Shown here: in pieces, positions 41,605 to 63,577 of the stretch
How the letters are laid out: the number at the start of each line of letters is the position of its first letter
How positions within the stretch are numbered: position 1 is the first letter of the stretch
From: Nanobdellota archaeon
GTDB lineage: Archaea > Nanobdellota > Nanobdellia > Pacearchaeales > GW2011-AR1
DNA length: 64,000 nt
NCBI GenBank assembly: GCA_030611805.1
Contig: JAUWPB010000002.1
Span: forward strand, 7,690-71,689
Reading direction: 5' to 3'
The notes under the pieces: model-generated
The model's database searches: none
The model's input: the letters and a program-made list of their open reading frames with translations, nothing else
What the model was told of the DNA's origin: nothing
Position numbers and translations under genes: made by a program

Positions 41605-41692
41605 TGCGCGGACTGGGATTCGAACCCAGATCATTTGGTTTCTTCAAAAATTAATTTGGAAGCCAAAGATTCTGCCATTGAACTATCCACGC
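41605..41692 (-). tRNA. tRNA-Gly (anticodon UCC) with 17-nt canonical intron after position 37
   Basis: Hand-folded cloverleaf: acceptor GCGTGGA/TCCGCGC, T-arm CTGGG-TTCGAAT-CCCAG, anticodon stem TTTGG/CCAAA. Intron AATTAATTTTTGAAGAA; its GAAG pairs with CTTC of the anticodon loop (BHB-like). No encoded CCA. Confidence 0.85.
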
Positions 41693-41743: not shown

Positions 41744-41816
41744 CGCCCGAGGTAGGATTTGAACCTACGACCTCGTCCTTAGGAGGGACGCATTCTATCC
41801 GCTGAACTACTCGGGC
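41744..41816 (-). tRNA. tRNA-Arg (anticodon CCU)
   Basis: Cloverleaf GCCCGAG-TA-GTTC..GAAT-G-CGTCC-CTCCTAA-GGACG-AGGTC-GTAGG-TTCAAAT-CCTAC-CTCGGGC-G. Confidence 0.9.
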
Positions 41817-41856
41817 TTACTGATATATTTTTAAAGAGCATTTTGATTTAAAAAAC

Positions 41857-42129
41857 ATGTTGGTTAAAATACTTGGAATAATTGACCTGATTGCGGGGTT
41901 GATTTTGATATTTGGGGCAAGTATAAACCTTCCGAACCAAATCTTTATGGTTTTTGGTGTGGTTTTATTAGTTAAATCTTCTTTAGGATTATTAAAAGAT
42001 TTTGCAAGCTGGATTGATTTTTTATGTGGGATAATTTTTCTTATATCAGCAACAATCTCAGTTCCAGAAATAATTAGTTTAATCTTTGGATTATTGATTA
42101 TTCAGAAAGGGCTTTTTAGTTTTTTGTGA
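41857..42129 (+). CDS. small membrane protein (3 hydrophobic helices)
   Basis: ORF with a strongly hydrophobic, helix-length periodic sequence. No recognised family. Confidence 0.4.
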   Translation: MLVKILGIIDLIAGLILIFGASINLPNQIFMVFGVVLLVKSSLGLLKDFASWIDFLCGIIFLISATISVPEIISLIFGLLIIQKGLFSFL

Positions 42130-42130
42130 A

Positions 42131-42206
42131 TGCGGAAGAAAGGATTCGAGGCCTCGAAGAGGTCATCCCCTTGTGGGAAACCCGTAGGGTGAGAATCAAA
42201 TTTATA
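42131..42206 (-). repeat. tRNA-Leu 3' trailer element A (GC-rich core + copy of tRNA 3' end)
   Basis: Minus strand reads TATAAATT-TGATTCTCACCCTACGGGTTTCCCACAAGGGGATGACCTCTTCGAGGCC-TCGAATCCTTTCTTCCGCA. The last 19 nt repeat the 3' end of the adjacent tRNA. The core is nearly identical to 53218-53267. Confidence 0.85.
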
Positions 42207-42290
42207 TGCGGAAGAAAGGATTCGAACCCTCGCAGGCACTAAGCCACTGGAGCCTTAATCCAGCCCGTTTGACCACTCCGGCACTTCCGC
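42207..42290 (-). tRNA. tRNA-Leu, type II; anticodon reads AAG
   Basis: GCGGAAG-TG-CCG..CGG-G-CTGGA-TTAAGGC-TCCAG-long variable arm-GAGGG-TTCGAAT-CCTTT-CTTCCGC-A. It is in perfect register with the tRNA-Leu(CAA) at 53125, and G37 fits the CUN-Leu family. Confidence 0.8.
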
Positions 42291-42315
42291 ATAGAATTAG
42301 AGGATATTTTGAATA

Positions 42316-42331
42316 TAAAAAGTTTTATAAA
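42316..42331 (+). promoter_or_regulatory. promoter (TATA box) of 5S rRNA: TAAAAAGTTTTATAAA
   Basis: The TATA centre lies about 25 nt upstream of the 5S 5' end. The 16-mer is identical to the one at 53296-53311. Confidence 0.6.
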
Positions 42332-42352
42332 TACAGATAATCATGAAATTTT

Positions 42353-42467
42353 GAAGACAGCCATAATAGGTTGGAAACACCTGGTCTCATTCCGAACCCA
42401 GAAGTTAAGCTTCCTATGTTGATGGCAGTAGTTTCCTACAAGAAGCCAAACCATTAAGCTGTCTTTC
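42353..42467 (+). rRNA. 5S rRNA (ends approximate)
   Basis: Contains 'CACCTGGTCTCATTCCGAACCCAGAAGTTAAGC', matching the conserved archaeal 5S core. Terminal helix AAGACAGC/GCTGTCTT. No 16S or 23S nearby. Confidence 0.85.
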
Positions 42468-42502
42468 ACTATTTTTATAAAAGATGTTTGAGTGATTGTT
42501 TA

Positions 42503-42766
42503 ATGAAATCCAACTTATCTAAAAAAGAAATTCAAATAAAAATTCTTGAATTTTTTAAAGATATTAAAAATCAAACCCCAAAAGAAGTTAAAAAAATAAA
42601 AAAACTTGCAATGAGCAAGAATATCTCTCTTGGGGGATTAAGAAAAAAATTTTGCAAAAAATGTTTAACTCCCTATAAGAGCCCTAAAATAAGGATTAAA
42701 AATAAAATAAAATCTGTAGTTTGCGAAGAATGTGATTATGTTGCTAGATGGAAGTTAAAACTCTAG
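42503..42766 (+). CDS. rnp4: RNase P protein component 4 (Rpr2/Rpp21-like zinc ribbon)
   Basis: 'KKLAMSKNISL..LRKKFCKKCLTPY..IRIKNK..VVCEECDY' matches the Rpr2 layout. ATG at 42503. Confidence 0.6.
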   Translation: MKSNLSKKEIQIKILEFFKDIKNQTPKEVKKIKKLAMSKNISLGGLRKKFCKKCLTPYKSPKIRIKNKIKSVVCEECDYVARWKLKL

Positions 42767-43587: not shown

Positions 43588-45792
43588 ATGAAACAAAAAA
43601 CAATAATCAAATTGGATAATGTAAAAAAACATTACTTGATGGGAGATAGCATAGTCCGGGCTTTAGATGGAGTTGATGTACAAATAAATAACGGGGATTT
43701 TGTGGTGATTATTGGTCCCAGTGGTTCTGGGAAATGTGTTTCTGGCGATACAGAATTAATATCAACCAAAGGCATACCAATTCAAATTAAAAATCTTAAA
43801 AAAGATAAAACAAAAATTTTTGCTATGTCTAAAAAAAGTGGGAAGATAATTCCTTTTTTATTCTCAAATTTTTATAAAAGAAAAGTTAAGAGTTTCTTGG
43901 AAATAAAAACGAGCAGTGGAAAATCAATTGAAGTAACTGAAGAACACCCTTTTTTCACATTAGATGAAAAAGGTTTTTCTGAGATTAAAGCCATGTCCCT
44001 CAAAAATAAAATGTTTATAGCCACTCTAAGGAAATTGAATTTTAAAGGATTGCCTCAAGATTTAAATTCATTAAAAAAATTAGGGAAAGATAAATCCTTG
44101 GTTGTATATGATTCCTTACAATTAATTAAAGAATTAAAAAAAGGAATTTCAAGAGGGAAAATTTGTAAAGAATTTGGTTTTAATCAAGTAACTTATGATT
44201 CTTGGTCAAATAAAAATAATATTAAATTACATAATTTTATTAAAATCATCAATGAATGCGGGAGAGATTTAAATGAGTATGAAGGAAAACTAAAACTAAC
44301 AGCACTTTCTTCTCGGATTTCTGTTAAAATTCCTCAGCATACAAGTCCCGAATTAATGGAGCTTTACGGATATTTAACCGGAGATGGCAATCTTGACGGA
44401 CATGGTTTAAAAATAACAAATATCGATAAAGAAATAATAAATGAAGTTAAATCTTTAGTAAGGAAAATTTTTGAGATCGATTGCAAAAAATTTATTGAAA
44501 AAAGAATTGATTGCAACACCAGGGTATTAAGAAGTTTTTTTAATTTAATATTTGAAGTACCGTTGATTAAAAAATCGCGCAATATCGATCTCCCAGATTT
44601 TGTATTTAAGTGCTCTAATAAAGAAATAGCAGGGTTTCTTAAAGGATTATTTGACTGCGATTCTTATATTTCAAAAGATAAAAAAGAGATTATAATAACT
44701 CTTGCTAGTAAAAACTTGATTAAACAACTAAATTATCTTTTATTAAGATTTGGTATTATTTCAAGATATTCGGAAAAAATAAAATGGGCAAGTAATACTA
44801 AACAAAAGATAAAAAGAAAGTATTATAGTTTATCTATCTCTGGTTTTGATAATCTGAAAATTTATGATGAAAAAATAGGTTTTAATTCTAAGAAAAAAAA
44901 TAAAAGATTAAAGAAACATTTGTCGGAAAATAAAAACACAAATGTTGATGTTGTCCCATGCGGAAAATTATTAAGAAATATAAGAAGGGGTTCAGGCATT
45001 TCACTGCCAAAAAAAATTCATAAAATATTATGGCCTTATGAAAAAGAAAAAATAAACCCTTCTTATGAAAAATTAAAAAAAATCATAAGGATATTAAAAA
45101 ACAATAAAATTAATGTTAAGGTGCTTGAAGAGATTATGAAAAAAAAGATATTTTGGGATAGGATAATTTCTATTAAAAAAATAAATAGAGAAATCCAGGT
45201 TTATGATATAACAGTTCCTGGAGCAGACAATTTTATTGCAAATGGATTTATAATTCATAATTCAACAATGATGAATATGGTTGGAGCATTGGATTTGCCG
45301 ACAGAAGGAGAGATTTATCTTGATGAACAAAATATTGCAAGTCTTGAGGAATCAGAGTTGGCGCAGATTAGAGGGAACAAAATAGGATTTGTGTTTCAGA
45401 CTTTTAATTTAATTCCTACTTTAACAACTTTAGAAAATATTGCACTTCCAATGATTTTTCAGGGCGTGAGTAAAGAAGAGAGAATTAAGAGAGCGGAAAA
45501 GATTTTAGAAGATGTTAAATTAACCCATAGAAAAAATCATCTGTCAAATGAGCTTTCTGGAGGGGAAAGACAGAGGGTTGCAATTGGAAGAGCATTAGCA
45601 AATAATCCGGATGTCATCTTAGCTGACGAGCCAACAGGAAATTTGGACACAAAAACAGGTTTGGAAATTATGAGATTATTTGTTGAATTAAATAAAAAAG
45701 GAAGAACAATAATTCTTGTTACTCACGATTTAAGTCTTGTAAAATATGCAAACAAGGTTTTAAAATTACAAGACGGAAAGATTGTGAAGTAA
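43588..45792 (+). CDS. ABC transporter ATP-binding protein (MacB/LolD-like) interrupted by an intein
   Basis: The exteins join to 'GPSGSGK|STMMNMVGALD', a complete Walker A. Downstream lie the Q-loop, 'LSGGERQRVAIGRAL' signature and 'ILADEPTGNLD' Walker B. Confidence 0.85.
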   Translation: MKQKTIIKLDNVKKHYLMGDSIVRALDGVDVQINNGDFVVIIGPSGSGKCVSGDTELISTKGIPIQIKNLKKDKTKIFAMSKKSGKIIPFLFSNFYKRKVKSFLEIKTSSGKSIEVTEEHPFFTLDEKGFSEIKAMSLKNKMFIATLRKLNFKGLPQDLNSLKKLGKDKSLVVYDSLQLIKELKKGISRGKICKEFGFNQVTYDSWSNKNNIKLHNFIKIINECGRDLNEYEGKLKLTALSSRISVKIPQHTSPELMELYGYLTGDGNLDGHGLKITNIDKEIINEVKSLVRKIFEIDCKKFIEKRIDCNTRVLRSFFNLIFEVPLIKKSRNIDLPDFVFKCSNKEIAGFLKGLFDCDSYISKDKKEIIITLASKNLIKQLNYLLLRFGIISRYSEKIKWASNTKQKIKRKYYSLSISGFDNLKIYDEKIGFNSKKKNKRLKKHLSENKNTNVDVVPCGKLLRNIRRGSGISLPKKIHKILWPYEKEKINPSYEKLKKIIRILKNNKINVKVLEEIMKKKIFWDRIISIKKINREIQVYDITVPGADNFIANGFIIHNSTMMNMVGALDLPTEGEIYLDEQNIASLEESELAQIRGNKIGFVFQTFNLIPTLTTLENIALPMIFQGVSKEERIKRAEKILEDVKLTHRKNHLSNELSGGERQRVAIGRALANNPDVILADEPTGNLDTKTGLEIMRLFVELNKKGRTIILVTHDLSLVKYANKVLKLQDGKIVK
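43735..45261 (+). mobile_element. 509-aa intein with LAGLIDADG homing-endonuclease domain
   Basis: Begins 'CVSGDTELI' and ends 'FIIHN', followed by +1 Ser. LAGLIDADG blocks 'LYGYLTGDGNL' and 'FLKGLFDCDSYI'. Inserted between the Lys and Ser of GxxGxGKS. Confidence 0.85.
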
Positions 45793-53124: not shown

Positions 53125-53208
53125 GCGGATGTGCCGGAGTGGTCAAACGGGACAGACTCAAAATCTGTTAGCTTAGTGCTTACGTGGGTTCGAATCCTTC
53201 CATCCGCA
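53125..53208 (+). tRNA. tRNA-Leu (anticodon CAA), type II
   Basis: GCGGATG-TG-CCG..CGG-G-ACAGA-CTCAAAA-TCTGT-variable arm-GTGGG-TTCGAAT-CCTTC-CATCCGC-A. One T:T mismatch in the T stem. Confidence 0.85.
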
Positions 53209-53286
53209 TCTGTATTTTTGATTCTCACCCTACGGGTTTCCCACAAGGGGATGACCTCTACGAGGCCGCGAATCCTTCCATCCGCA
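53209..53286 (+). repeat. tRNA-Leu 3' trailer element B (GC-rich core + copy of tRNA 3' end)
   Basis: TCTGTATTTT-TGATTCTCACCCTACGGGTTTCCCACAAGGGGATGACCTCTACGAGGCC-GCGAATCCTTCCATCCGCA. The last 18 nt repeat this tRNA's own 3' end. Confidence 0.85.
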
Positions 53287-53311: not shown

Positions 53312-53388
53312 CCCATATCTTTTCAAATTTATACCTGCGAGTGAATCGCGTTAGCGGGAAGATAATACTTCTCGTTTAACAATAAAAA

Positions 53389-55068: not shown

Positions 55069-55704
55069 TCATTTTCCCCTCTTCAACCCCTCTAACTTAT
55101 TCTGGACATGATTAAATAAAGTTGAAGAAAGAAGTGGCTGGTGATTGCCTTGGTGTGTCTGGCCGTCAAATTTAATTTTTCCAAGATAGGTTTGATTTGA
55201 AAGAACTTTTTTTAGCCCGTTTACAGAAAACCCATATTTTTTTGCTAACTTTGTTAAACTAATTTTTTGATTTAAAAAATCCTGAAAAATTTCCTGAACA
55301 ATGTATGAATTTTCAGACGGAATTATTTTTTTATTTTCTAATTTATAACCAAACGCCGCCCTTGTGACAATGTTTCCTTTATTAAACTTTAAAACCATTC
55401 CTTTTTTTGTTCTCTTGGAAATGGATTTTTGAGATTTTCTGAAAGTCTCCAAAAGATCCCCATCAATTTTTTCAGAAATATAGACCTCAAATTCTTTCTC
55501 ATCATCCGGAGCATAATAATGGCAGATAGAACATAAAGTTACTAAATTATTAATACTATCTTCTCCTCCTTTAACCTTCATTTTTATGTGATGTACTTCC
55601 AAGTCATCTAATAGTGCATAAAACCCACATTTTTGGCACTTAAATTTATCTCTGCTAAATACTTCTGATTTTATTTTAAAAGAGACTGTTAATCTTTTTG
55701 ACAT
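55069..55704 (-). CDS. HNH endonuclease domain fused to a serine-recombinase-type 'Recombinase' DNA-binding domain (no resolvase catalytic domain)
   Basis: N-terminus 'CQKCG..LEVHHI..GGEDSINNLVTLCSICH'. C-terminus 'AFGYKLENKK..YIVQEIFQDFLN.KISLTKLAKKY..VLSNQTYLGKI..HQPLLSSTLFNHVQ' resembles the domain that follows the resolvase core in large serine recombinases. Confidence 0.55.
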   Translation of the reverse strand: MSKRLTVSFKIKSEVFSRDKFKCQKCGFYALLDDLEVHHIKMKVKGGEDSINNLVTLCSICHYYAPDDEKEFEVYISEKIDGDLLETFRKSQKSISKRTKKGMVLKFNKGNIVTRAAFGYKLENKKIIPSENSYIVQEIFQDFLNQKISLTKLAKKYGFSVNGLKKVLSNQTYLGKIKFDGQTHQGNHQPLLSSTLFNHVQNKLEGLKRGK

Positions 55705-55705
55705 T

Positions 55706-56542
55706 TTATATTCCCATCATATGATCTAATGGATTTTTTATTTTTTTTAATTCTTCGGTTGAAACGTGTGTGTATATTTGAGTTGTTGAAAGATCTGCAT
55801 GCCCCAACAATTCTTGTATTTTTCTTATGTCCACATTATTTTCTAAAAGATGGGTGGCAAAACTATGCCTAAGAGTATGAGGAGAAACTTTTTTATTGAT
55901 TTTAGCCTTTTTTGCAGCATTTCTTACGATTTTTTGTATATTCCTATCAGATAATTTTCCTTTTGGACCAGTAAATAAATACTCCTCCTCATTTTCTTGT
56001 TGTTTTCTCGCCTGTTTTTTTAAATTTTTTAATAAAAATTGAGGAATATTAAAGATTCTATCTTTTTTTCCTTTTGCTTGTCGTAAATACCCAATCATTT
56101 CCTCAAAATCTAAATCAGAAATTTTAAGATTAACCAACTCTGATACCCTAAAACCTGATGCATAAATTAACCATGTCATTAATTTGCTCTTTTTTGTGGG
56201 AACATGCTCAAGAAGTTTAATTACTTCATTTTTGGTTAAAACTGCTGGAAGTTTTTTCTCTTTTTTTGGGCGTTTTATTCCCATTGTTACATCTCTCTTT
56301 AAAATGGTAGAAAAGGAAAATCTTAATGCAGATAAAAAAACAATAATTGTTGCAGCCGCATTTTCTGTTAGTTTTTCTGCCATATAGAATTTAATGTCAT
56401 CTGATGTGATATTATCTGGCTCTTTTTCCAGGAAATTAAATATTTTTTTATTAACATCTAAATAGTTGCGAATAGTATATTTAGAATTTTTAGAAATCTT
56501 TAATTCAATCTCTAACTTCTTCAAAAATTCCTCTTTTTTCAT
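55706..56542 (-). CDS. xerA: tyrosine recombinase, XerA/XerC/D-like
   Basis: 'SPHTLRHSFATHLLENNVDIRKIQELLGHADLSTTQIYTHV' (R..H..R/H..Y catalytic set) plus a SAM-like N-domain. Confidence 0.8.
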   Translation of the reverse strand: MKKEEFLKKLEIELKISKNSKYTIRNYLDVNKKIFNFLEKEPDNITSDDIKFYMAEKLTENAAATIIVFLSALRFSFSTILKRDVTMGIKRPKKEKKLPAVLTKNEVIKLLEHVPTKKSKLMTWLIYASGFRVSELVNLKISDLDFEEMIGYLRQAKGKKDRIFNIPQFLLKNLKKQARKQQENEEEYLFTGPKGKLSDRNIQKIVRNAAKKAKINKKVSPHTLRHSFATHLLENNVDIRKIQELLGHADLSTTQIYTHVSTEELKKIKNPLDHMMGI

Positions 56543-60686: not shown

Positions 60687-61928
60687 ATGACAACAGAACT
60701 TGATGAGATTTTTGAATCTTTTGATAAAAATATTATTTTTAAAGATAAATCTATATTACAAACAAGATATCAACCAGAAGAAATTCCTCATAGAATTGAA
60801 CAGATAAAACAAATTGGCTCAATACTTGCGCCGGTTTTAAGAGGTGAAAGAACAAGTAATTTATTTCTTTATGGGAAAACAGGAACAGGTAAAACTCTTT
60901 CAATCCAACATGTTAGTGATAAACTTTTGAAAAGAGTTAGTAAAAATGAAGGGTTTAAATTAAGAATTGAGTATTTGAATTGTAAATTAAAAAAAGTTTC
61001 TGATACTGAATATAGAATTTTAGCAGAACTTATTAAAAAATTAGGTGGAAGTGTACCTGCTACTGGATTGCCAACACAAGCCGTGTATAGTAAATTTATT
61101 GAGATTATTGATTCTGAGAAACAGTTGATTGTTTTAATTCTTGATGAGATTGATCAGACTGTTAAAAAAATTTCTAATGATTTTTTATATAATTTAACAA
61201 GGCTTAACTCTGAACTTTCTAAAACCCAAATATGTATTGTAGGAATTAGTAATAATTTAACTTTTTTAGATGAACTTGACCCAAGGGTGAGGAGTTCGCT
61301 TTCAGAGGAAGAGATTGTTTTCCCTCCTTATAATGCATTACAGTTGCAGGAAATTTTAAATAAAAGGGCAAAAGGGGTGTTTAAAGAAGGAGTCCTTCAA
61401 GATGGTGTTGTTGCTAAGTGTGCTGCTTTTGCTGCAAGAGAACATGGAGATGCAAGAAGAGCTTTAGATTTATTAAGGATTGCTGGGGAGTTAGCAGAGA
61501 GAGACGGTTCTAAAAAAGTTTTGTTAAAATATATTGATGAAGCCAATAATAAAATTGAAAGAGATAAAATTTTAGATGTTATTAAATCAGAACCAAGACA
61601 ATTTCAGCTTGTTTTGTATTCTATAATTCATTTGTCTGAGAGAAAAATAAAAAATTCTAAAAACAAGACAGGACAAACTAATGATTCTATTTTTACAGGA
61701 GATGTGTATAATTTTTATCAGGATTTGTGTGTTCAAAATAAATTAGAGGTTTTAACACAAAGAAGGGTGAGTGATATTATTCAGGAATTTGATATGCTTG
61801 GGATTATTAATGTCAGAGTTATTTCAAAAGGCAGAGGAGGGAGAATGAGAGAAATAAAATTAGCAATCTCAAAGAATATCCTTCAAAAAGCAAAAGAAAT
61901 TATTGAAGATTCTTTGAGTTATGGTTGA
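60687..61928 (+). CDS. cdc6: Orc1/Cdc6 replication initiator
   Basis: 'LFLYGKTGTGKT' Walker A, 'VLILDEID' Walker B, 'GDARRALDLLRIAGELAE' sensor region, and a C-terminal winged helix. Confidence 0.9.
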   Translation: MTTELDEIFESFDKNIIFKDKSILQTRYQPEEIPHRIEQIKQIGSILAPVLRGERTSNLFLYGKTGTGKTLSIQHVSDKLLKRVSKNEGFKLRIEYLNCKLKKVSDTEYRILAELIKKLGGSVPATGLPTQAVYSKFIEIIDSEKQLIVLILDEIDQTVKKISNDFLYNLTRLNSELSKTQICIVGISNNLTFLDELDPRVRSSLSEEEIVFPPYNALQLQEILNKRAKGVFKEGVLQDGVVAKCAAFAAREHGDARRALDLLRIAGELAERDGSKKVLLKYIDEANNKIERDKILDVIKSEPRQFQLVLYSIIHLSERKIKNSKNKTGQTNDSIFTGDVYNFYQDLCVQNKLEVLTQRRVSDIIQEFDMLGIINVRVISKGRGGRMREIKLAISKNILQKAKEIIEDSLSYG

Positions 61929-62011
61929 TTAAAAAACACAGACGTATTTTTTAAATAAAAGATTAAAAAACACAGCCGCATTTTTAATTAAATAAAAGAT
62001 CAAAAAACACT

Positions 62012-63577
62012 ATGGAACAAAAAGATATTTTAAAGTTTTGTTTGACTAAAGGACTTTTGTTGGATAAAGAAGTTTTAAGTTTATTTAGTGAAACAAATGA
62101 TTTTGAATCTGTAAAGTTAATTGTTGAAAAAATTAAAAATAATAGTCAACAGAGAATTATAACTAAAGGCATTTTTTATCAAAATAAAGAGGATGTTAAT
62201 CAAATTTTTTCTGGTCTTCCTGAAGAAAATCAAAAAATACTTGAAAAAATAAAAATTAAACTTGGATTAAGTATTGAAATATCAAAGGAGAAAGAAATTA
62301 TACCTTCTTTTCAAAACGAAAAAGAAAAAATTAATGAAATCAATGATGTAAGAATTACTTCCAAGAATCTTAGTTTTAATAAAAAAATAGAAGTTAAAGA
62401 TTTTGTTAAGTATTTTAGAAACAGGTTCGTTGAAATGAAAAATGTTTTGCAGGAACACCAAGAATTGAATAATTTGGTTTCAATAAATAAGATTTCAGGG
62501 AACAGACAAGGCATTTCTATAATTGGTCTTGTCTCTGATAAAAAAGTTACTAAGAATAAAAATATGTTGCTTGAGATAGAAGACCTGACAGGAAAAATCA
62601 AGGTTTTGATAAATCAGAACAAGTCAGAACTTTATAAAAAAGCAGAGGAGATAACTTTAGATTCTGTGATTGGGTTTAATGTTTCGGGAAATCGAGAAAT
62701 AGTTTTTGTAAATAATCTTTTTTTCCCGGATTCAATGATTGTTGAAAGAAAGAGGTCTTCTGTTGAAGAGTATGCTTTATTTATCGGAGATTTACATTTT
62801 GGAAGCAAATTATTTTTAGAAGAGAATTTTTTAAAATTTATTAATTATCTTAATGGAGAAGTTCCAAATACACCAGAGGTTGAGAAAATAAAGTATTTGT
62901 TTATTGTAGGGGATTTAATTACTGGTGTTGGGAATTATCCGAATCAGGAAAAGGATTTAGAAGTGGTTGACCTTGAAGAGCAATTTGAAAAGATTGCTGG
63001 GTTGCTAGGTAAGATAAGAAAAGACATTAAAATAATAATTTCTCCAGGGAATCACGATGGCGTGAGATTAATGGAGCCACAACCAGTATTTGATGAAAAA
63101 TATGCCTGGTCTTTATATAATATGAAGAATGTGATTTTGACAGAAAACCCCTGTAACTTAAATATTGGGGCAAAAGAAAATTTTTCTGGATTTGATGTCC
63201 TGACTTATCATGGGTTTTCTTTTCCTTTTTATGCAAATAATGTTTCTAAATTAATGTTGAAGAGAGCAATGAATTGTCCCGAGGAAATTATGAAGTATCT
63301 TTTAAAGAACAGGCATCTGGCCCCGACACATGCTTCTGCACAGTATTTTCCTTTAGAAGAAGATGCGTTAATGATACGGAAAACTCCGGATATTTTTGTT
63401 GCAGCCCATACACATAAAAGCGGGATTTCTTATTACAATAATATTTTAGTTATTTCAACTTCATGCTGGGAGAGTATGACTCCTTATCAGGAGAAATTTG
63501 GAAATGAACCAGATCATTGCAAGGTTCCGATGTTTAATTTAAAAACAAGGGCAGTAAAAATACTTGATTTTGAATAA
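62012..63577 (+). CDS. DNA polymerase II (PolD) small subunit DP1
   Basis: OB-fold middle region and calcineurin-like phosphoesterase motifs 'FIGDLHFGS', 'FIVGDL', 'PGNHDG', 'HGF', 'AAHTH'. Classic position next to cdc6. Confidence 0.85.
   Translation: MEQKDILKFCLTKGLLLDKEVLSLFSETNDFESVKLIVEKIKNNSQQRIITKGIFYQNKEDVNQIFSGLPEENQKILEKIKIKLGLSIEISKEKEIIPSFQNEKEKINEINDVRITSKNLSFNKKIEVKDFVKYFRNRFVEMKNVLQEHQELNNLVSINKISGNRQGISIIGLVSDKKVTKNKNMLLEIEDLTGKIKVLINQNKSELYKKAEEITLDSVIGFNVSGNREIVFVNNLFFPDSMIVERKRSSVEEYALFIGDLHFGSKLFLEENFLKFINYLNGEVPNTPEVEKIKYLFIVGDLITGVGNYPNQEKDLEVVDLEEQFEKIAGLLGKIRKDIKIIISPGNHDGVRLMEPQPVFDEKYAWSLYNMKNVILTENPCNLNIGAKENFSGFDVLTYHGFSFPFYANNVSKLMLKRAMNCPEEIMKYLLKNRHLAPTHASAQYFPLEEDALMIRKTPDIFVAAHTHKSGISYYNNILVISTSCWESMTPYQEKFGNEPDHCKVPMFNLKTRAVKILDFE

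Follow-up and report, generated by a model that had tools for sequence, protein, structure and literature searches.

Where an integrase targets the T loop of a tRNA gene, the direct repeat, or identity block, classically runs from that loop to the end of the gene. In Prochlorococcus, the successive integrations of tycheposons have left arrays of partial tRNAs (bioRxiv 10.1101/2020.12.28.424599). Casposons lie at the 3′ ends of tRNA-Leu or tRNA-Pro genes in M. mazei and A. boonei, and their target duplication of 14–15 bp comprises the last 4 bp of the tRNA (CGCA) and 10 bp downstream of it (PMC6977970). Here we analyzed a 64-kb stretch of contig JAUWPB010000002.1 (the window), from a DPANN archaeon that is close to metagenome-assembled genomes with the labels Pacearchaeota, Woesearchaeota or Nanoarchaeota. 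Two tRNA-Leu genes of the window are each followed by a short AT spacer, a GC-rich core of 48 nt and a copy of the end of a tRNA. The unit behaves most like the att-bounded insertions known at tRNA genes, and it most likely represents an undescribed family of elements of ~55–70 bp in Pacearchaeota-like DPANN hosts. Targeted full-text searches of the literature gave no description of the core family or of the general pattern in DPANN archaea. The two units are composed as follows.

42207–42290, minus strand: complete tRNA-Leu(AAG) gene (ARAGORN; Rfam tRNA, 52.8 bits), acceptor stem without mismatches
42198–42206, minus strand: AT spacer TATAAATTT, 9 nt (locus A)
42150–42197, minus strand: 48-nt core GATTCTCACCCTACGGGTTTCCCACAAGGGGATGACCTCTTCGAGGCC (locus A), 58.3% GC against 28.7% for the window
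42131–42149, minus strand: distal copy TCGAATCCTTTCTTCCGCA of tRNA positions 55–73 (T loop to discriminator), 19/19 identical to the end of its own tRNA
53125–53208, plus strand: complete tRNA-Leu(CAA) gene (ARAGORN; Rfam, 56.5 bits), between rpoD and the L18e gene
53209–53219, plus strand: AT spacer TCTGTATTTTT, 11 nt, including a run of five T (locus B)
53220–53267, plus strand: second 48-nt core, one base different from core A (hairpin 3 loop TAC, not TTC)
53268–53286, plus strand: distal copy GCGAATCCTTCCATCCGCA, a G followed by 18 nt identical to tRNA-Leu(CAA) positions 56–73

The 3′ ends of tRNA-Leu(CAA) and tRNA-Leu(AAG) differ, and as each distal copy agrees with the gene directly before it, every unit repeats the end of its own tRNA. 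This is the single most informative fact about the units. The complete tRNA-Leu(AAG) gene at 42207–42290, upstream of the element, is the functional copy, and we read the distal copy at 42131–42149 as a duplicated target. Just 57–59 bp separate the direct repeats at the two loci. A chance origin of the core and of the 3′-end repeats is excluded, a 40-nt core pattern being matched twice in the window against 0.00 expected and a 3′-end pattern four times against 0.08 expected. Locus A is flanked by a small conserved open reading frame (ORF) and a 5S rRNA gene, and locus B sits in the conserved cluster S13-S4-S11-rpoD-tRNA-Leu-L18e-L13-S9. Both tRNA-Leu genes share a box, TTTTTATAT, that ends 23–24 nt upstream of base 1, from which nearly leaderless transcripts are predicted. 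A previous description of locus A, made from its letters alone and called here the sequence-only reading, gave the spacer as 8 nt, whereas it measures 9 nt. That description was otherwise borne out as regards the make-up of the unit: the core with its exact 19-nt repeat of the tRNA end, its GC content far above that of the surroundings, and the near-identical unit in inverted orientation behind the other tRNA-Leu gene 11 kb away.

The core can be dissected as follows, the coordinates being those of locus A.

Core 1–12, GATTCTCACCCT: complement of T-arm positions 50–61 with a 2-nt central mismatch
Core 8–18 (42180–42190, minus strand): hairpin 1, ACCC-TAC-GGGT
Core 15–19, GGGTT: direct copy of tRNA positions 51–55
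Core 19–32: possible hairpin 2
Core 27–35, AAGGGGATGA: complementary to the 3′ half of the T arm
Core 36–46 (42152–42162, minus strand): hairpin 3, CCTC-TTC-GAGG
Core 47–48: CC

Relatives were gathered by two routes, namely through the orthologous rpoD loci in 80 GTDB species and in the closest relatives, and through matches of a looser 22-mer of the core, ATTCTCACCYTACRGGTTTCCC, in metagenomes. The related loci sampled for comparison are designated by L-numbers; fetched flanks were at most 20 kb and mostly only 3 kb long, and the relatedness of hosts is given as percent identity to the RpoD of the window. Fifteen copies of the core were found: two in the window, two in L082, and those of L084, L085/L086, L047 and L087–L094. 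All 15 cores lie 2–12 nt behind a tRNA-Leu gene with the anticodon CAA, AAG or TAG, and every complete copy ends in a duplicate of tRNA positions 55/56–73. The RpoD identities of the hosts are 97, 85, 83, 64, 60, 57 and 55%. The left boundary of the core is identical in all 15 copies, in at least seven lineages and at three isoacceptor genes. The proximal tRNA is complete in every member, with a perfect acceptor stem. The hosts show seven different acceptor-stem sequences, each matched by its own distal copy, which argues against a functionless copy derived from one ancient event. Eight of 12 distal copies are identical to their own tRNA, and the others carry one or two changes: L087, L088 and L090 have a single one, which in L088 breaks an acceptor pair, and L091 has two when compared with the 3′-end copy in front of its core. 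Moreover, different isoacceptor genes of the same genome bear near-identical cores followed by their own, differing repeats, as at loci A and B of the window and in L089 and L094, which share one 217-kb contig.

The distribution of the family is patchy. Sites are empty in relatives at 77–79% RpoD identity (L002, L003 and L140–L144) and in most of the 80 GTDB species. At empty sites the promoter flank (TTTATAAAC; TAAAAAGTTTTATAAAC) comes immediately after the tRNA, and at filled sites the same flank follows the distal repeat. The spacers of the window, L084 and L085 cannot be aligned, although their flanks can. A covariance model (R1) was run across 654 kb of relatives and retrieved no diverged members, its weak matches being the 3′ halves of tRNA-Leu genes; the search of relatives suggested by the sequence-only reading thus yielded a family with covariation and, in these 654 kb, no further members. 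An exact 21-mer of the core, GGGTTTCCCACAAGGGGATGA, matched nothing in viral, genome or metagenome collections, and the 22-mer ATTCTCACCYTACRGGTTTCCC matched 8 metagenome loci and no IMG/VR viral contig. A 16-base gapped pattern gave 45 viral matches, all of them chance matches.

The members share a constant order: a variable AT spacer (2–12 nt, also variable in sequence), (G)ATTCTCACCYTACRGGTTTCCC(AC)A(A)GGG(G)ATGA, a hairpin, CC, T or G, and CGAATCC... to the discriminator. Within this order, GATTC-TC-ACCY is the complement of tRNA positions 51–61 apart from its two central bases, (C)YTAC-RGGTT copies positions 44–48 and 51–55, and AAGGGAT-GA is complementary to positions 59–65. The core is thus largely assembled from inverted and direct pieces of the T arm. 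The repeat therefore really consists of ~30 nt of tRNA, which reach from where the variable arm ends to position 73 and carry an insertion of 28–36 nt between positions 55 and 56. The first 30 nt of the core are almost invariant, even in hosts at 55–64% RpoD identity.

Covariation was counted on 13 distinct, phylogenetically related sequences. The closing pair of hairpin 1 (ACCY/RGGT) is U-A in seven members, C-G in six and broken in none. In 12 of 12 members its C/U switch goes with the base at position 51 of the host T stem (G or A), and from the types of loop 2 and hairpin 3 we infer that it arose at least twice. Hairpin 3 keeps a constant CTC/GAG base, while its distal part varies in length and sequence yet stays paired (CTCTTT-TTC-AAAGAG, CTCAAC-TTT-GTTGAG, CTC-AGGAA-GAG, CTC-GGGAA-GAG), and two of its pairs change on both sides. 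Hairpin 2 is invariant among members and thus devoid of covariation. The sequence-only reading had proposed a miniature cloverleaf of three hairpins closed by GATTC/GAATC. All three hairpins can form; compensatory changes argue for hairpins 1 and 3 only, whereas the closing helix does not covary and is broken in 3 of 13 members. The view of a conserved and partly structured element was upheld by the 15 copies and by the compensation in these two hairpins. Fold energies were not better than those of shuffled sequences (z = -0.5 and -0.1). The nested fold given by RNAalifold differs and contains almost no covariation (-0.44), and hairpins 1 and 3 were preferred to it. A candidate kink-turn (K-turn) can be drawn from GGGATGA, hairpin 3, CCKC and GAATCC(T), with an NC helix that is 90% paired and shows no covariation; its bulge is 4 nt instead of 3, and a canonical K-turn was dropped by hand on account of this extra nucleotide.

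The arrival of a unit can be followed in one pair of loci. L034 and L088/L090 have 100% identical tRNA-Leu(CAA) genes and flanks that are 83–89% identical. In L034, an older insert of 84 nt starting with TTGGAAGATTCGAAC directly follows the discriminator, and in L088 TG, the core and the repeat separate the tRNA from the remnant TTGGAAGGATTTGAAC. The older insert has therefore been parted from the tRNA by the arrival of a ready-made unit of ~66 bp. Stacked inserts were also found in L087, L091 and L041, two or three in series, each followed by a 3′-end copy. In L041 (3972–4260), a 144-nt insert unit with its 3′-end copy is present twice in tandem behind tRNA-Leu(CAA), and a related insert occurs in L045.

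The units are also associated with rearrangements. A BLAST comparison of window positions 41781–42520 with L082 positions 1731–2480 showed that the 164-bp unit formed by tRNA-Leu(AAG) and the element (42129–42292) is inverted in place relative to L082, the relative at 97% RpoD identity. The acceptor-stem inverted repeat TGCGGAAG/CTTCCGCA forms the exact ends of this inversion, with the old promoter segment absent. Behind the CAA gene of L085/L086 come the core, an AAG-type repeat and the flank of locus A. This order is what recombination between inverted cores is expected to produce in a genome like that of the window, inverting the 11 kb that separates them. Finally, the tRNA-Leu(CAA) of L084 (4929–5012) has a CAA anticodon arm but shares its acceptor stem, variable arm and T arm with tRNA-Leu(AAG) of the window, which points to gene conversion between tRNA-Leu isoacceptor genes. 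In L009, the flank directly behind tRNA-Leu(CAA) begins with TGAATCCTTTTTTC; it resembles a degenerate partial 3′-end copy and may be the remnant of a lost insert.

Set against att repeats and tycheposons, the unit shows the same succession of a complete tRNA, an insert and a partial 3′-end copy that begins in the T loop. The newest insert lies beside the complete tRNA, older ones are pushed outward and partial copies gather changes, as in those systems. Unlike them, the insert measures 55–70 bp, encodes nothing and has no linked integrase; a direct repeat of 18–19 nt of the tRNA 3′ part is present at both loci and in the family, with no integrase or genes between the repeats. The element further differs in its constant boundaries, in its conserved and covarying structure, in a proximal copy that always fits the acceptor stem of the host, and in that no free form of it was found in IMG/VR. 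Like casposons, it lies at the extreme 3′ end of a tRNA-Leu gene in an archaeon and has a long target duplication involving CGCA. However, this duplication spans positions 55/56–73, includes CGCA and ends at the discriminator with at most one T beyond it; the element is ~60 bp long rather than kilobases, no terminal inverted repeats (TIRs) were seen by eye, and no Cas1 or PolB was seen in the window. A miniature inverted-repeat transposable element (MITE) was rejected, as the ends of the element (TATAAATTTGATTC... and ...CTTCGAGGCC) are not inverted repeats and its duplication amounts to 18–19 bp against 2–10 bp for MITEs. Non-canonical archaeal introns of the bulge-helix-bulge (BHB) type, for which transposition has been proposed in Thermoproteales, likewise provide small inserts in the T-arm region and near-identical copies in different tRNA genes of one genome. 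The element differs from such introns in that it has no BHB, lies outside a complete tRNA and is flanked by duplicated exon sequence.

Two further groups of systems may resemble the element in parts. Integron attC sites, the attP(+) of phage CTX and REP/PATE hairpins are recombination sites that act as folded single strands. The element is as short as attC and, in part, keeps structure over sequence; it likewise has inverted target copies with unpaired central bases beside a regenerated target, and arrays at fixed sites. Unlike these systems, it has stems of only 3–6 bp and no linked IntI, Xer or HUH enzyme, and none of these systems is known to use tRNA T loops in archaea. Transposon guide RNAs comprise the omega-RNA of TnpB and the delocalized homing CRISPR RNA of type V-K CRISPR-associated transposons, located next to tRNA genes. 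As in these, a structured scaffold is followed by a same-sense copy of 17–20 nt of the attachment site in a tRNA gene. In contrast, no TnpB or Cas12 was seen in the window or in related loci, the scaffold is far shorter than omega-RNAs, and the guide of the element would match the resident tRNA gene too.

We favour the interpretation that the unit is a non-autonomous insertion element which targets the T loop or 3′ end of tRNA-Leu genes and duplicates positions 55/56–73, to which we assign a probability of about one half. Among the three ideas offered by the sequence-only reading, that of a mobile tRNA-targeting element or att-site relic fits best with the patchy distribution, the three isoacceptors with their own copies, the before/after pair, the stacking and the recombination. 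Insertion would leave the tRNA intact, with the segment from the T loop (55/56) to the discriminator ending up on both sides of the insert. The complete upstream copy would be the working tRNA, and the downstream copy of 18–19 nt a by-product, either a target duplication or an att-type direct repeat, free to decay or to be swapped. The conserved part would be the core, with its inverted and direct T-arm segments and its two compensated hairpins. Its mimicry of the T arm could be recognized by a trans-acting machinery, probably on folded single-stranded nucleic acid, and the unpaired central dinucleotides, located at the exact boundary of the repeat (55/56), may be part of the feature recognized. 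Transcription would probably extend from the tRNA through the element, which RNase Z would then remove as part of the 3′ trailer. Copies of the element act as recombination substrates and have rearranged the chromosome.

Several observations weigh against this interpretation. No enzyme was found for the element: the window and the fetched loci encode no transposase or element-linked integrase, and a Pfam scan of 34 window ORFs, covering most of the larger ones, revealed no transposase, TnpB or Cas gene. The nearest recombinase genes are 2 kb downstream of locus B:

55069–56542, minus strand: tyrosine recombinase/integrase of 278 aa (55706–56542) beside an HNH and 'Recombinase'-domain protein of 211 aa

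This pair is syntenic behind the S9 gene in filled and empty loci alike; it is therefore not linked to the element and is probably a housekeeping Xer-like pair. No terminal inverted repeats were apparent on reading the element ends. A simple staggered-cut duplication would not predict the variable spacer that lies between proximal repeat and core, and a double-stranded DNA circle of ~70 bp is an implausible recombination substrate. A free or virus-borne core had no true match in IMG/VR, plasmid and phage collections not having been searched. Likewise, no filled/empty polymorphism within a single population was obtained, exact-protein look-ups with L18e, L13 and ORF90 for such polymorphism at the strain level giving no match. 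The patchiness could equally stem from frequent precise loss through recombination between the two repeats, and gene conversion between isoacceptor genes, as in L084, means that spread between paralogues need not be transposition. In seven lineages the distal copy follows the sequence of its tRNA, and of five substitutions in distal copies four preserve the ability to pair; this would also fit selection on an RNA that matches the tRNA.

Such selection is the substance of the alternative in which the element acts in cis as a functional RNA, either a structured trailer at the 3′ end of pre-tRNA-Leu or a small RNA that RNase Z releases from it, which would pair with the T arm and the 5′ acceptor strand and control the folding, processing or quality control of tRNA-Leu. 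We consider it unlikely, though it accounts for a good deal: hairpins 1 and 3 are compensated, the length of hairpin 3 varies as in RNA stems, the first 30 nt of the core hardly change at 55–64% RpoD identity, the C/U of ACCY changes with host position 51 in 12 of 12 members, and the distal copy fits seven acceptor stems. In addition, members with spacers of 2–3 nt leave no room for a promoter of their own, so that the element must be co-transcribed in those members. The data are compatible with a trailer released by RNase Z, the element being probably co-transcribed. On the other hand, most relatives, including those at 77–79% RpoD identity, do without the element, which is thus dispensable; L085/L086 (two samples) tolerate a foreign distal copy, and the change in L088 breaks an acceptor pair. 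In fold energy the element does not surpass shuffled sequences, and it matches no Rfam family. In silico the element even competes with the tRNA fold, the minimum free energy (MFE) structure of the whole transcript using the distal end and lying 7–10 kcal/mol below the sum of the parts. Moreover, the unrelated inserts of the same design at tRNA-Gly and tRNA-Arg genes (see below) and the stacked arrays resemble repeated insertion rather than an adapted signal. The predicted pairing of the 5′ end with the distal copy in that MFE structure would also suit an archaeal tRNA intron or alternative 3′ exon, in which the acceptor stem would use the distal copy while the splicing endonuclease removed the proximal copy, the spacer and the core. 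Splicing between equivalent positions of the two repeats would yield a normal tRNA, and DPANN splicing endonucleases are reported to be of broad specificity (PMC5829648). A scan of nine members in all tRNA-regenerating splice registers (a helix of 4 bp, with each 3-nt bulge cut after its second base) nonetheless revealed no hBHBh' motif; the best candidates were a 4-bp UCGA/UCGA helix without flanking helices, or a helix with 3 of 4 bp formed accompanied by an outer T stem only. The BHB search across the duplicated segments suggested by the sequence-only reading was thus negative. Furthermore, the upstream tRNA is always complete without splicing, and several distal copies are altered or, in L085/L086 and L034, foreign and do not fit the tRNA. 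We accordingly regard the intron or alternative exon, which that reading had listed, as very improbable.

The remaining alternatives concern the origin of the repeats. The unit could be the scar of a larger integrative element, a virus or plasmid, whose tyrosine integrase crossed over in the T loop, the repeats being attL and attR, the bulk having been deleted and the core representing an arm beside attR. Consistent with this, the repeat runs from inside the T loop to the tRNA end, arrays of partial tRNAs left by successive integrations are known, for example from tycheposons, and the core has a tRNA-Leu-like sequence upstream of the crossover (CYTAC-RGGTT, corresponding to about positions 44–55), as attP sites do. 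We hold such a scar to be unlikely, and somewhat less probable than a functional RNA. Independent deletions would not produce a constant left boundary in 15 copies, at least seven lineages and three isoacceptors. No kilobase-scale element lies between the repeats in the sampled loci, most of which have flanks of just 3 kb, and no core was found in IMG/VR viral contigs. A T-loop crossover would also supply the proximal 3′ part from the element, yet this part fits seven 5′ acceptor strands perfectly; moreover, the T-arm-like half-site and the distal repeat lie 28–36 nt apart. Lower still in our estimation, and improbable, is an immobile local product of template switching at the palindromic DNA of the T loop (TTCGAA), inherited vertically, spread by gene conversion and lost by recombination between the repeats. 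It would explain why the inserts are patchworks of inverted and direct copies of their own T arm, the 2-nt micro-inversions (GA to TC and the reverse) within the inverted copies, and the counterpart at the 5′ end of a tRNA in L143/L144, and gene conversion among tRNA-Leu isoacceptors is visible in L084. However, independent events would not give the same non-tRNA part of 28–36 nt (TCCC..GGGATGA, hairpin 3 and CC) at 55% RpoD identity. The compensation in hairpins 1 and 3 shows selection after the origin, and the comparison of L034 with L088 shows a ready-made core arriving.

Known RNAs were also sought. In Rfam 15, at the gathering threshold and at E values up to 10, only the tRNA itself was matched in 42100–42300, and only tRNA and 5S rRNA in 15 related loci; no family, the small self-cleaving ribozymes and the C/D and H/ACA small RNAs (sRNAs) included, matched the element. 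By eye, neither a pair of C and D boxes nor a CUGANGA...GAAA hammerhead core was seen. C/D box sRNA, an H/ACA pocket, a hammerhead core, a reverse-strand tRNA fragment and a retroelement primer-binding site were all dropped by hand, as was a CTX-type forked hairpin, the stem of which would have just 4 bp. A search for a split-tRNA partner found no complement of 10 nt or more elsewhere in the 64-kb window.

The same design was encountered at other tRNA genes. Copies of a tRNA's own 3′ end, defined as its last 13 nt with at most one mismatch within 300 nt downstream, were found in 22 of 137 tRNA genes in non-redundant loci (Leu 17/81, Gly 3/22, Arg 2/24). A scan of the loci for more distant copies found none beyond 300 nt, all 26 second copies lying within this distance. 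The inserts fall into several families, unrelated in sequence, with an inverted copy of their own T arm near the start of the insert, a direct copy of about positions 44/48–55 later, and a distal copy in which an insertion, a deletion or a small duplication always damages the T loop. Within the first 40 nt of the insert, an inverted T-arm match of 5 nt or more was present in 22 of 22 cases; for tRNAs without a distal copy, the match was at most 4 nt in 86 of 115. We read the deviations of the inverted copies from a perfect complement as 2-nt micro-inversions, GA to TC and the reverse. Patterns made for two of the other insert families gave no viral match.

Taken further, this design leads us to a speculative proposal, which we put forward as doubtful: the inserts may form a new class of gene-less, TIR-less elements that parasitize tRNA genes. 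They would mimic the T arm through modules with unpaired centres that fold in single-stranded DNA or RNA, hijack a host enzyme acting on the T loop or tRNA end, or use the 3′ target copy as a guide, and regenerate the tRNA by duplicating positions 55/56–73, giving arrays at about one sixth of the tRNA genes of the clade. If the interpretation as insertion elements is true, very small structured insertions have so far gone unnoticed at the tRNA genes of reduced DPANN genomes (22 of the 137 sampled), and their partial tRNA copies can confuse annotation and searches for introns or split tRNAs. The inserts would also supply the repeats at which chromosome segments are inverted, two such rearrangements being present among the close relatives here. 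The puzzle would then be how a transposase-less sequence of 60 bp inserts with a target duplication of 18–19 bp, and experiments find a concrete handle in the mimicry of the T arm and in the covariation with the T stem of the host. Should the trailer RNA prove functional instead, it would represent a novel type of archaeal regulatory RNA linked to a tRNA.

A counterpart of the design on the 5′ side of a tRNA was observed in L143 and L144. Some 45–150 nt downstream of rpoD, these loci carry GCGGAGTTGCCGGAG, which corresponds to tRNA-Leu positions 1–15, followed by an 88-nt insert and a complete tRNA-Leu; the insert holds the T-arm-like pieces TCAAATCCTTG and GAAGGTTTCG. The tRNA-Gly(TCC) (41605–41692, minus strand) and tRNA-Arg(CCT) (41744–41816) genes of the window have no 3′ insert, and their orthologues in other relatives have one. 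The tRNA-Gly(TCC) gene is 88 nt long, as is its orthologue in L082, for which a 17-nt intron at the canonical position is reported; given the equal length, the window gene probably has the same intron. Archaeal tRNAs with A at position 34 are unusual. The tRNA-Leu(AAG) of the window, which has A34, recurs in L007, L048, L070, L089, L090 and L093 and is therefore not a sequencing error.

Other features of the window were noted in passing. Between the TTTATAAAC promoter and the start codon of the L18e gene, a conserved leader, ACCTGCGAGT..CGCGTTAGCGGGAAG....CTTCTCG, occupies 53329–53375 (plus strand). It is recognizable in many related loci, matches no Rfam family and may be a ribosomal-protein operon leader. 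The ABC-type ATPase encoded at 43588–45792 (plus strand; 734 aa) is split by an intein with a LAGLIDADG homing-endonuclease domain, and its orthologue in L082, at 97% RpoD identity, has 225 aa and no intein. An Orc1/Cdc6 gene followed by the gene for the small subunit of DNA polymerase D lies at 60687–63577 (plus strand), and the AT-rich region upstream of it, at 56–60 kb, has the lowest GC content of the window (0.25). A replication origin may lie in this region, close to the segment that is inverted in relatives. Finally, positions 1–37320 hold a large cluster with many B12-binding radical-SAM and SPASM proteins among glycosyltransferases, together with a polysaccharide flippase-like gene.

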